Positions 24,089-26,330 of a DNA stretch of 64,000 bases are shown here, piece after piece; position 1 is the stretch's first letter, and each line of letters begins with the position of its first letter. The position numbers and the translations under genes are program-made. This DNA comes from Oligoflexales bacterium. Lineage in GTDB: Bacteria > Bdellovibrionota_B > Oligoflexia > Oligoflexales > JAPPIL01. A model generated the notes under the pieces. The model did no database searches, was not told the origin of the DNA, and saw nothing but the letters and a program-made list of their open reading frames with translations. The DNA is taken from assembly GCA_965215515.1 (NCBI GenBank), contig OZ244057.1, forward strand, positions 1,215,717 through 1,279,716. Direction: 5' to 3'.

Positions 24089-25968
24089 GGTGTCTTCCGT
24101 GTGCGGTGGTGCAGAAAGACGTGCAGTAGCTGCACGGCTGCGGGGGTCATCCCGCTGATGCGTGCTGCTTGTCCGAGGGTGGTGGGTTTGATGTGGGTAA
24201 GTTTTTCCACAAATTCGCGCCGCAGACCCGTGACGGCAGCGAATTCAAATCCTGACGGGATATGCACTCGTTCCAAGTCGTCGAGCAGTTTCATGTGGCG
24301 TGCGTCGCGTTTGATGTAGCCCTCGTAACGAATTTCGATCTCGGCACTGCGCAAGGTACGGGGGGTAAAGTCGCGCAATTGCGGCATTAGGGCAAGCATT
24401 TCTTGTTGACTCACCTCAGGTCGTTTCCAGTAATCGCATGCTGTGCCTCGTCCGTCGGGGAGTGTGGTGCGTTGGAGCTGCGCGAGGCAATTCTGCAGTG
24501 CGGTACGGCGGTGCAGGAAGCGTTTCTCCGTGTCGGCGGTGACTAGTCCCAGTTCGATGCCGAGCGGGGTGAGGCGTAGGTCGGCGTTGTCTTCTCGCAG
24601 GTGTAGACGGTGTTCGGCACGGGAGGTAAACATACGGTATGGTTCGTTCGTCCCTTTGGTGACGAGGTCGTCGATCATCACGCCGATGTACGCTTGAGTG
24701 CGTGATAAGACGAGTGGTTCTCGACCTTGGCAGCTGCGAGTTGCGTTGATGCCTGCTATCAAGCCTTGTGCTGCAGCTTCTTCGTAGCCAGTTGTGCCGT
24801 TAATTTGTCCCGCGAGGTAGAGGTGGGCGATGCGTTTTGTGGCAAGACTGGGGTAGAGTTCTTGAGGGTTGATGAAGTCGTATTCGATGGCATAGCCCGC
24901 TCGGATTATCTCGGCTTTTTGCAGGCCTGCGACGGAACGCACGAAGGCTACTTGTGCTGCAAGTGGCAGTGAGGTTGAGATACCGTTAGGGTAGACTTCG
25001 CAGGTGTCGTAGCCGTGTGGTTCGAGAAATATTTGGTGTGCTTGGCGGTCGGGGAACTTGACTACTTTATCCTCGATCGAGGGGCAGTAGCGCGGCCCGA
25101 CGCTGTTGATTGCACCGCTGTAGAGAGGTGATTGGTCGAGATGGCGGTTGATGATGGTGTGGGTGTCAGGGTTGGTGGCGGTAATGTGGCAGGGTAACAA
25201 GGGTTGGGTAATTTTTCCCGTGCTAAAGCTGAAGGGGATGATGTCGTCGTCGGAGTCCTGTCGCGTTAGTTGGCTGTAGTCGATACTGCGGGCATCGAGA
25301 CGTGGCGTTGTGCCTGTTTTCAGTCGCCCGACGGCGAAACCGTAGTGGGGGAAGAAAGCAGCTAGGGTTACGGCGGCGGCATCGCCCGCCCGTCCTGCCG
25401 TGATGCGTGTGTTACCGATGTGCATGAGTCCGTTCAGGAATGTGCCGCTGGTGATGATGATGCGTTGTGCGTAGCATGTGCCGAAGATTTTGCTGTTCAC
25501 CCCTTGCACTTTGTCGTCGGCGATGAGTAATTCTTCAACGCTGTCCTGTCGCAGATGCAGGTTGGTCTGTTGTTCCAGTGTTTTTTTCATGTAGCGTTGG
25601 TAAAGTCCCATATCTGCTTGCGCTCGTGATGACCACACCGCGAAACCGCGGCTACGGTTGAGTACTCGGAATTGGATACCTGTGTGATCGATTGCCTTGC
25701 CCATTTCCCCCCCGAGCGCGTCGATCTCTTTGACTAGATGCCCCTTCGCGGTGCCGCCGATGGCGGGGTTGCAGCTCATGGCGGCGATACGGTCGACTGA
25801 ATGTGTGATCAGCAATGTTTTTGCTCCCAGCCGTGCCGCGGCCAGTGCCGCTTCGCATCCTGCGTGTCCTGCGCCGATGACGATGATGTTGAATTCGTGT
25901 TTCATGTTGTGAGCCTTTTGTGCGGCACTGGGATTTTTTGTCGCTTTCTCGCTTCTGCCGCTTCGCAT
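24085..25968 (-). CDS. mnmG: tRNA uridine-5-carboxymethylaminomethyl modification enzyme MnmG (GidA)
   Basis: FAD-binding N-terminus FNIIVIGAGHAGCEAALAAARLG and full-length MnmG blocks. The functional start is most likely the internal ATG at 25905 (MKHEF...). The ORF extension to 25968 runs into the tandem repeat. 4-bp overlap with eno. Confidence 0.95.
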   Translation of the reverse strand: MRSGRSEKATKNPSAAQKAHNMKHEFNIIVIGAGHAGCEAALAAARLGAKTLLITHSVDRIAAMSCNPAIGGTAKGHLVKEIDALGGEMGKAIDHTGIQFRVLNRSRGFAVWSSRAQADMGLYQRYMKKTLEQQTNLHLRQDSVEELLIADDKVQGVNSKIFGTCYAQRIIITSGTFLNGLMHIGNTRITAGRAGDAAAVTLAAFFPHYGFAVGRLKTGTTPRLDARSIDYSQLTRQDSDDDIIPFSFSTGKITQPLLPCHITATNPDTHTIINRHLDQSPLYSGAINSVGPRYCPSIEDKVVKFPDRQAHQIFLEPHGYDTCEVYPNGISTSLPLAAQVAFVRSVAGLQKAEIIRAGYAIEYDFINPQELYPSLATKRIAHLYLAGQINGTTGYEEAAAQGLIAGINATRSCQGREPLVLSRTQAYIGVMIDDLVTKGTNEPYRMFTSRAEHRLHLREDNADLRLTPLGIELGLVTADTEKRFLHRRTALQNCLAQLQRTTLPDGRGTACDYWKRPEVSQQEMLALMPQLRDFTPRTLRSAEIEIRYEGYIKRDARHMKLLDDLERVHIPSGFEFAAVTGLRREFVEKLTHIKPTTLGQAARISGMTPAAVQLLHVFLHHRTRKTP

Positions 25969-26330
25969 CCTGCGTGTCCTGCGCCGATGACGATGATGTT
26001 GAATTCGTGTTTCATGTTGTGAGCCTTTTGTGCGGCACTGGGATTTTTTGTCGCTTTCTCGCTTCTGCCGCTTCGCATCCTGCGTGTCCTGCGCCGATGA
26101 CGATGATGTTGAATTCGTGTTTCATGTTGTGAGCCTTTTGTGCGGCACTGGGATTTTTTGTCGCTTTCTCGCTTCTGCCGCTTCGCATCCTGCGTGTCCT
26201 GCGCCGATGACGATGATGTTGAATTCGTGTTTCATGTTGTGAGCCTTTTGTGCGGCACTGGGGTTTTTTGTCGCTTTCTCGCTTCGCTCAGGCTTGTTCG
26301 CCGCTTTCTCGCTCCTGCCGAGTTTTTGAT
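25847..26330. repeat. 110-bp direct tandem repeat, about 4.4 near-identical copies, each containing the mnmG start codon, first ~19 codons and 53 bp of upstream sequence
   Basis: cttcgcatcctgcgtgtcctgcgccgatga recurs at 25851, 25961, 26071 and 26181 (period exactly 110). Copy 4 has two substitutions. A degenerate partial copy follows to about 26330. This explains the identical artefactual ORFs 25801-26433 in the track. Confidence 0.9.

Follow-up and report, generated by a model that had tools for sequence, protein, structure and literature searches.

A tandem array reiterating the translation-initiation region of mnmG in an Oligoflexales bacterium is shared with its relatives and varies in copy number

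The stretch analyzed here (the window) comprises 64,000 nucleotides (nt) of contig OZ244057.1 from an Oligoflexales bacterium and contains, on the minus strand, mnmG (gidA), the gene of a transfer RNA (tRNA)-modification enzyme. The 5' end of this gene is repeated in a tandem array, which is the subject of this report. The array, the gene, and two sequences that affect their delimitation are located as follows.

24085..25905, minus strand: mnmG (gidA), 606 amino acids (aa), identified by the Pfam domain GIDA (E 8e-161) and two GIDA/MnmG C-terminal domains
25846-25955, 25956-26065, 26066-26175, and 26176-26285, minus strand: tandem array of 4.0 units of 110 bp, from repeat finders and self-comparison
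25906..25968, minus strand: spurious N-terminal extension of 21 codons (MRSGRSEKATKNPSAAQKAHN), opened by an in-frame ATG in the preceding unit; the longest open reading frame (ORF) is 24085-25968
26295-26319, minus strand: echo of the spacer start, incomplete and older (GGAGCGAGAAAGCGG), from motif match and sequence model

The array is a genuine feature at the sequence level. Tandem Repeats Finder places it at 25846-26285 with a period of 110, 4.0 copies, 99% matches, and a score of 873, and a separate repeat search recovered the same four 110-bp units. In a self-comparison at a lag of 110, the matches run unbroken between 25846 and 26285, both boundaries of the array are sharp, and the units agree at 439 of 440 positions; the sole difference is a G at 26263, in the gene-distal unit. 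Read in the sense of mnmG, each unit starts with 50 nt of spacer or leader (GAAGCGAGAAAGCGACAAAAAATCCCAGTGCCGCACAAAAGGCTCACAAC) and continues into the first 60 coding nt, i.e., mnmG codons 1-20 (MKHEFNIIVIGAGHAGCEAA), and the gene-proximal unit (25846-25955) is the genuine 5' end of the gene. This anatomy confirms an earlier note on the window, which had described near-identical 110-bp units with an exact period that reiterate the start codon, the first ~19 codons, and the leader of mnmG, whereas its count of about 4.4 copies has to be lowered to 4.0 and its first position of the array moves from 25847 to 25846. The additional 0.4 copy is explained by the echo. The region 26286-26330 is out of register with the 110-bp units; the echo within it comprises 25 nt, located 10-34 nt beyond the array, with the core AGCGAGAAAGCG at 26302-26313. 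It is matched at E 1.3e-3 by a sequence model of the spacer (R1), whose training set did not include it. The 22-nt spacer start of the unit has no further match in the 64 kb (0 expected from shuffles), and no dispersed copies of the unit or of its spacer motif (described below) were found elsewhere in the window.

The true start of mnmG is the ATG at 25905-25903 (MKHEF), where the N-terminus lines up with the starts of 15 homologs. Homologs of MnmG have 603-608 aa, and all are without the 21-residue extension. The public protein P0001, which is 100% identical and encoded on a 2.18-Mb contig, has 627 aa because an in-frame ATG sits inside the preceding repeat unit; its start was probably called 21 residues too far upstream, a start-codon mis-call caused by the array.

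The upstream copies of the mnmG start open short reading frames, which are preceded by another ORF in the non-repeated leader.

25902..26015, minus strand: decoy upstream ORF (uORF) 3, 37 aa, closest to mnmG; ATG at 26015-26013; its stop TGA at 25904-25902 overlaps the true mnmG ATG (ATGA)
26012..26125, minus strand: decoy uORF 2, 37 aa; its stop overlaps the ATG of decoy 3 (ATGA)
26122..26235, minus strand: decoy uORF 1, 37 aa, distal; its stop overlaps the ATG of decoy 2 (ATGA)
26232..26375, minus strand: ORF0, 47 aa (MGCCPIPRQLFEKSW...HKRLTT), in the non-repeated leader; ATG at 26375-26373; its stop TGA overlaps the ATG of decoy 1 (ATGA)

The decoys are out of frame because 110 is not a multiple of 3, and all three upstream copies translate as MKHEFNIIVIGAGHAGCEAAEARKRQKIPVPHKRLTT followed by a stop, exactly the out-of-frame 37-aa peptides that had been predicted. 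Since 110 equals 3 x 36 + 2 and codon 2 begins with A, the TGA of each decoy overlaps the next ATG. Together with ORF0, whose start is preceded by the purine-rich sequence GGAGGAAGGGAAG, the copies form a chain of five ORFs (ORF0-decoy-decoy-decoy-mnmG) with four consecutive ATGA junctions; upstream of the array, the two frames other than that of ORF0 are closed.

A search of a large protein collection for relatives of MnmG returned a tight clade with 74-87% identity, whose contigs were fetched for comparison. Four species-level lineages with MnmG 83-87% identical to that of the window carry a homologous duplication at the same place. Periods and copy numbers differ among the loci.

Window (P0001): 110 bp, 4.0 copies
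L081 (P0003): 104 bp, 4.4 copies, 95% matches
L091 (P0126): 104 bp, 5.2 copies
L084 (P0004): 109 bp, 3.5 copies
L085 (P0005): two copies, period 98
L086/L087 (P0007): two copies, period 107
L082, L083, L088, and L089/L090: single copy

Outside this clade, the closest MnmG among the GTDB representative matches listed has 65% identity and stems from Oligoflexales-like metagenome-assembled genomes. In the JGI metagenomes, a degenerate pattern of the junction gave no match, and the nearest relatives of MnmG reach ~66%. A second copy of the N-terminal dinucleotide-binding motif was absent from all 80 unrelated mnmG loci that served as controls (three forward frames), and every locus with at least two copies of this motif belongs to the clade of the window. 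In the MnmG tree, the duplicated loci all fall inside one crown clade, along with the single-copy loci L082 and L083, and one gain followed by two losses represents the most parsimonious history. At least two copies were kept in five of the seven crown lineages, where four-fold degenerate sites are near saturation.

The units of an array are 87.5-100% identical within a genome, compared with 61-76% between species, which indicates that the arrays evolve in concert and are homogenized within genomes. Recombination between units is evidently ongoing, as three observations document directly. Two unit types are combined as a mosaic in the true 5' end of L081, but not in that of L091, and the distal copy of L084 begins with MRSEY, the true N-terminus of a 95% identical relative (P0129), as expected if copies collapse or convert one another. 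Moreover, L081 and L091 encode MnmG proteins that are 99.3% identical, yet their arrays comprise 4.4 and 5.2 copies, respectively, a difference of one unit, and the order of the unit variants differs as well. Hence, the locus behaves as a variable number of tandem repeats (VNTR), as the earlier note had suspected; the polymorphism is that of a sister species, and the species of the window itself is represented by one assembly. The recent expansion proposed in the same note agrees with the near-perfect identity of the units in the window, whereas the duplication itself is old and common to five species-level lineages.

The beginning of MnmG is itself diverse in this clade, proteins P0121-P0132 included, with residues 2-5 being hypervariable (KHEF, NSKY, QDKY, QHEY, NNTY, HDEY, TCTY, HIDY, RSEY, NEEY, and REEY). 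Array copies of L081, L084, and L091 carry alternative versions of the N-terminus, and the 'KYN' copies of L081 resemble the 'EYN' of P0127. Gene conversion from array copies may swap the N-terminus of MnmG.

The spacers contain a conserved motif and resemble an element that is found elsewhere in the genomes of relatives.

25942..25954, with repeats at 26052-26064, 26162-26174, and 26272-26284, minus strand: conserved 13-nt spacer motif GAGCGAGAAAGCG (AAGCGAGAAAGCG in the window, 12/13, first base A), from spacer alignments
L083 4096-4153, 4616-4665, 9093-9199, 12288-12371, and 12463-12482; L082 8596-8622; L088 6408-6461: spacer-like GCGAGC-rich element of ~45-60 nt (GAGCTAGGAAGCGAGCGATACAAAAAGCAGCGTAGCGAGCGAAGCGAGC)

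The spacers of the five array lineages can be aligned with 16 invariant columns, including GAGC.AG.AAGCG, and their pairwise identity is above the 99th percentile of shuffles in six of ten pairs, equal to it in two, and below it in two. There are two types of junction: L081, L085, and L087 break after …CATGCGRG, and the window and L084 carry 13 extra coding nt (…GAAGCRGCR) before the same spacer. The motif GAGCGAGAAAGCG is exact in L084 and L085, matches at 12 of 13 positions in the window and L087, and at 11 of 13 in L081. Four-fold degenerate sites of the adjacent mnmG reach only 39-47% identity when the window is compared with its relatives; the spacer motif is much better conserved than such synonymous sites, which points to a constraint at the nucleotide level. 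The constraint does not act on a peptide, because the motif is read in different frames across the lineages, depending on the junction type (…EARKR… vs …RSEKA…). Selection on something at this locus is indicated because, in addition to the conservation of the motif, at least two copies persist in five of seven lineages despite active recombination and the irreversibility of a collapse.

A model based on the sequence of the spacer matches all units of the arrays (by construction) but also an element of L088 that lies away from mnmG (E 2.5e-4) and, marginally (E 0.1-0.2), GCGAGC-rich repeats in L083 and L082; there were no matches in 19 outgroup loci. The GCGAGC-rich element occurs at no fewer than five intergenic sites (at least 5) within 14 kb of the single-copy locus L083, where it is locally duplicated, and at one site each in L082 and L088; it looks like a lineage-specific family of the repetitive extragenic palindromic (REP) kind. 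The spacer may derive from such a lineage-specific, internally repetitive, slippage-prone intergenic element, which we regard as a lead rather than a conclusion. A derivation of the spacer from decayed mnmG codons 17-33 was considered and rejected; only the first ~15 nt are alike by eye, and the remainder is non-collinear.

The earlier note had also envisaged reiterated promoters. If each unit had its own promoter, a higher copy number would raise the transcription of mnmG; the same 50-nt spacer stands before every true and decoy start, and a non-consensus promoter or one for an alternative sigma factor is conceivable. This explanation is very unlikely, because a search for sigma-70-like promoters (-35/-10, spacing of 16-18 nt) found 0 sites in 25700-26600 (0.4 expected), and the spacer alignment contains no conserved -10-like hexamer. 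A conserved promoter-like block is located upstream of the whole array instead.

26392..26400, minus strand: candidate extended -10 element TGCTATGAG, with an invariant TGnTAT in the block upstream of the whole array

All six syntenic loci (6/6), the single-copy locus L083 among them, retain the TGnTAT block upstream of mnmG. A sigma-54-like spacing (GG-N10-GC) in the spacer, noticed by eye in the alignment, fits only L081 and L087 and was rejected as a conserved feature.

A structured RNA leader was rejected as well. A search of Rfam was negative both in 25000-31000 (E<=1) and, at the gathering score, in the window; single units fold no better than shuffles (z -0.1 to -1.5), and the stems spotted by eye, which join the last part of the coding fragment to mid-spacer sequence, are not exceptional. 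The non-repeated leader folds somewhat better than shuffles (z -2.0). It contains a perfect 22-bp palindrome (CCAACTTTTTTCAAAAAGTTGG) at 26331-26352 and a hairpin (ATGGGGTGCTGCCCCAT) at 26359-26375 that includes the AUG of ORF0, both within a ~52-nt stretch of the mnmG leader without a counterpart in five syntenic relatives; this region could be an operator or a translational element. A Shine-Dalgarno-like GGAGG and its complement are paired in a perfect stem of 9 bp (ACGAGGAGG…CCTCCTCGT) in the L085 leader (~5860-5890), ahead of the distal copy of mnmG.

The selected feature may be a site in the spacer rather than the decoys. The purine-rich GAGCGAGAAAGCG would then be bound, as DNA or RNA, by a regulator, a small RNA, or the ribosome, with the mnmG fragment carried along and the expansion multiplying the site. 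Such a role would account for the preservation of the motif at 11 or more of its 13 positions in lineages that share only 39-47% of their four-fold sites with the window, for its independence of the reading frame (ARKR vs SEK), and for the related element in L088, together with the marginal matches in L082 and L083. Also, variable columns are concentrated in the coding part of the decoys (nine vs three in the spacer of L081; seven vs zero in L091), but this contrast is weak because the variants within an array are few linked changes. Given the lack of a promoter consensus in the spacer and of an Rfam match, the restriction of the sigma-54-like spacing to L081 and L087, the unexceptional folding of the units, and the absence of any other copy of the motif from the 64-kb window, we consider this explanation rather unlikely.

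The arrangement of the decoys can be followed across the lineages. ATGA junctions are present in three lineages that differ in period (window, 110; L085, 98; L087, 107). The probability of such a junction arising by chance is ~0.07 per lineage, a rough estimate of our own (1/3 for the period, ~1/2 for an A at +4, and ~0.4 for an open frame) for lineages that are not independent. ATGA overlaps support termination-reinitiation in Escherichia coli and Haloferax, and many coupled gene pairs share the overlap (PMC6728339). The stop of mnmG and the start of the enolase gene (eno) also overlap by ATGA (24085-24088, CCATGAGC), which means that the organism uses the same arrangement at an ordinary gene pair. 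In L081-L088 and L091, the ORFs of mnmG and enolase likewise overlap by 4 nt, the letters ATGA having been read in the window only; in L089/L090, thyX takes the place of eno downstream of mnmG.

The explanation that we favor has, as a whole, a probability of about 0.6: the array is an old, inherited VNTR of the translation-initiation region of mnmG (ribosome-binding site [RBS], ATG, and ~16-20 codons) that varies in copy number and evolves in concert, and its decoys would lie on the mnmG transcript. The structural and evolutionary account is highly probable; that the number of decoys truly affects expression is doubtful, though a serious possibility. The duplication would have originated once, in the ancestor of an uncultured Oligoflexia-like clade. 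The spacer of ~50 nt between the copies is presumably a relative of the GCGAGC-rich intergenic element of L088 and, with weaker similarity, of the repeats dispersed in L083. Ever since, the array would have changed as its units recombined unequally, slipped, and converted one another, so that the units remain homogeneous within a genome while diverging across species, and the copy number drifts between 1 and ~5; the four virtually perfect copies in the window would represent the latest expansion. A transcript that starts from the promoter-like block upstream would carry one to four short decoy ORFs before mnmG. Ribosomes could start at ORF0 or at any of the weak AAAGG sites and would then be handed down the AUGA junctions by termination-reinitiation until they reach mnmG. 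Each added unit would mean one more reinitiation step, and the copy number could thereby grade the output of MnmG.

Several observations weigh against this explanation. L082 and L083 lie inside the clade without the duplication, which makes it dispensable. The decoys of L081 and L091 end at a TAG ~50 nt before the next ATG and have no ATGA coupling, and those of L084 overrun the next ATG and stop 8 nt past it. The Shine-Dalgarno sequence in each unit (AAAGG) is weak, and the AUG of ORF0 lies in a small hairpin. The search for sigma-70-like sites detected no full promoter upstream of the array either, and the assignment of the TGnTAT block as a putative promoter is deduced from the conservation of the block. 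Finally, the species of the window is represented by a single assembly.

The last point, together with units that are perfect except for one base, would be in line with four copies mis-assembled from one or two. Such an artifact is highly improbable, because the same architecture is present in related assemblies from several samples, some of them megabase contigs, with differing styles of record naming; the array in the window has sharp boundaries, and its distal unit carries a private substitution. The short-read scaffold L086 shows no extra copies but a run of Ns (~1100-1190) that starts exactly where the first mnmG copy should begin. Copy numbers from short reads are unreliable because such arrays break short-read assemblies.

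The dispensability of the duplication could also indicate a neutral by-product of mutation, i.e., a slippage-prone partial duplication with fluctuating copy number and no effect on the expression of MnmG, tolerated because the decoys end in stops and the last unit provides an intact start. The single-copy members of the clade (L082 and L083) are presumably healthy, the decoy peptides are not conserved (the flavin adenine dinucleotide [FAD] motif in the copies of L081 has the variants GGEQAG, GGGQAG, and GGGHAR), and the positions of the decoy stops vary among the lineages. A second perfect array in the window (40 bp x 12, 29688-30167) suggests that the genome is generally prone to repeats, and the intergenic VNTRs of Wolbachia, with units of 105-141 bp, ~99% unit identity, and variable copy number, have no demonstrated function (PMC3287509). 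By contrast, neutrality does not readily explain why five of seven crown lineages near synonymous saturation keep at least two copies when recombination is active and collapse to a single copy irreversible, why the spacer motif is conserved far above the four-fold sites, and why three lineages whose units differ in length have ATGA junctions (each at the rough chance of ~0.07 given above). On balance, we regard a neutral by-product as possible, though on the unlikely side.

An inherited VNTR could, in a stronger form, act as a selected heritable rheostat for MnmG, in which self-derived decoys are relayed by AUGA, the spacer motif is a binding or standby site, and the copy number sets the output, with cassettes of the N-terminus as a side effect. 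The rheostat might even be autoregulatory: by our count, 7 of the 17 codons in the decoy tails of the window specify Lys, Glu, Gln, Arg (AGR), and Gly (GGR), and autoregulation is conceivable because these codons are read by tRNAs that MnmG modifies. We consider a selected rheostat improbable.

The genes around the array and a second array nearby are the following.

21007-22176, plus strand: ankyrin-repeat protein
22180-22722, minus strand: ankyrin-repeat protein
22847-24088, minus strand: enolase
26498-27550, plus strand: Glu/Leu/Phe/Val (ELFV) dehydrogenase, divergent
27582-29684, minus strand: UvrD-like helicase
29688-30167: second tandem array, 40 bp x 12.0, 99% matches, minus-sense unit GGCAGATAACTTACCTTGGCGCAGGGTATCTGACGGCACT, no coding sequence

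Other neighbors are an FtsW/RodA-like protein and ABC transporter genes; no integrase or element genes are nearby, and the window contains no tRNA genes. Between the FtsW/RodA-like gene, whose stop is at 30197, and the UvrD-like helicase, whose ATG is at 29684, almost all of the intervening sequence belongs to the 40-bp array; only 3 nt separate the array from the helicase ATG (…GGCACTATAATGAGC), and its single variant base is in the copy nearest to the gene. An ankyrin protein is encoded near mnmG also in L084, and the ankyrin proteins, together with contigs of 1.6-3.2 Mb, hint at a host-associated lifestyle of the clade.

The proximity of gidA to oriC in some Proteobacteria had led to the suggestion in the earlier note that the array is part of, or linked to, a replication origin, in which case the units would reiterate DnaA-binding or unwinding elements. 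Apart from this classical proximity, nothing speaks for an origin, and the checks of GC skew and DnaA boxes that had been advised, run on the window, lend it no support. DnaA boxes (TTATCCACA-like, with up to one mismatch) are absent between 24211 and 28870 and from the units, and the GC skew of the window tracks the gene strand without a switch at the array (~26 kb). The neighbors are the genes of enolase, the ELFV dehydrogenase, the UvrD-like helicase, ABC transporters, and ankyrin proteins, and dnaA, dnaN, rsmG, and parAB were not among the 17 large ORFs scanned on both sides of the array (window 14378-43070). The probability of a role in replication initiation is negligible.

When the initiation region of a gene is found reiterated in a tandem array, the finding is commonly written off as a transient accident or an assembly error. 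The mnmG array has persisted at the same housekeeping gene through divergence at the species level, is homogenized, and still changes its copy number. The related species and the near-identical strains of one of them form a natural series of 1 to ~5 copies in which chains of AUGA-coupled uORFs can be studied, and which bears also on the survival time of partial gene duplications and on the question of whether copy number tunes a tRNA-modification enzyme. In practice, the array misleads gene callers, as documented by a public protein that is 21 residues too long, and breaks short-read assemblies.

Of the known systems, the long-period VNTRs in small genomes of host-associated bacteria come closest. 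In Wolbachia, VNTR-105 and VNTR-141 have units of 105-141 bp with ~99% identity, vary from strain to strain (0.8-7.3 copies), and are ascribed to slipped-strand mispairing (PMC3287509). The mnmG array shares with this kind the units of ~100-140 bp, the very high identity within a genome, the variation of copy number between close strains, the proposed mechanism (slipped-strand mispairing or unequal recombination), and the occurrence in small genomes that encode ankyrin proteins. Unlike these VNTRs, which are mostly intergenic (PMC3287509, PMC7343930), the mnmG unit holds the RBS, the start codon, and 20 codons of a housekeeping gene. Because of this content, each extra copy adds a translatable decoy ORF. 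Also unlike them, the duplication has been retained across species near synonymous saturation. The repeats of Ehrlichia ruminantium reportedly sometimes duplicate the ends of genes, giving rise to truncated gene fragments.

The decoys resemble bacterial uORFs and leader peptides in being short same-strand ORFs with their own start before the main gene, and they share the ATGA overlap of stop and start with gene pairs coupled by termination-reinitiation (PMC6728339). Unlike leader peptides, which are single and dedicated, they are copies of the gene's own N-terminus, variable in number, and chained by four junctions; unlike leader peptides and attenuators, they show no stalling motif or attenuator structure in the Rfam search and the unit folds. 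The array does not belong to the contingency loci, although it shares with them a repeat in the 5' part of a gene that gains or loses copies by slippage and could alter expression heritably. The units of contingency loci measure 1-9 nt and shift the reading frame or the promoter spacing, whereas the unit of the mnmG arrays measures 98-111 nt and leaves the true ORF intact at any copy number; any effect would be graded and not on/off.

Like the duplications at attachment sites, the locus combines a truncated copy of a gene end beside the intact gene with foreign sequence between them, but the insert comprises only ~50 nt, there are no integrase or element genes nearby, and the copies are reiterated in tandem. 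A resemblance to REP elements and bacterial interspersed mosaic elements is provided by the similarity of the spacer to short GCGAGC-rich intergenic elements of relatives; unlike in those families, this similarity is significant for L088 only and marginal for L083 and L082, and no other copy is present in the window. Compared with the known long-period VNTRs, the mnmG locus is distinguished in that the unit is the gene's own initiation region, that its copies form a chain of uORFs with ATGA junctions through which translation may be coupled, and that the duplication is conserved across species.

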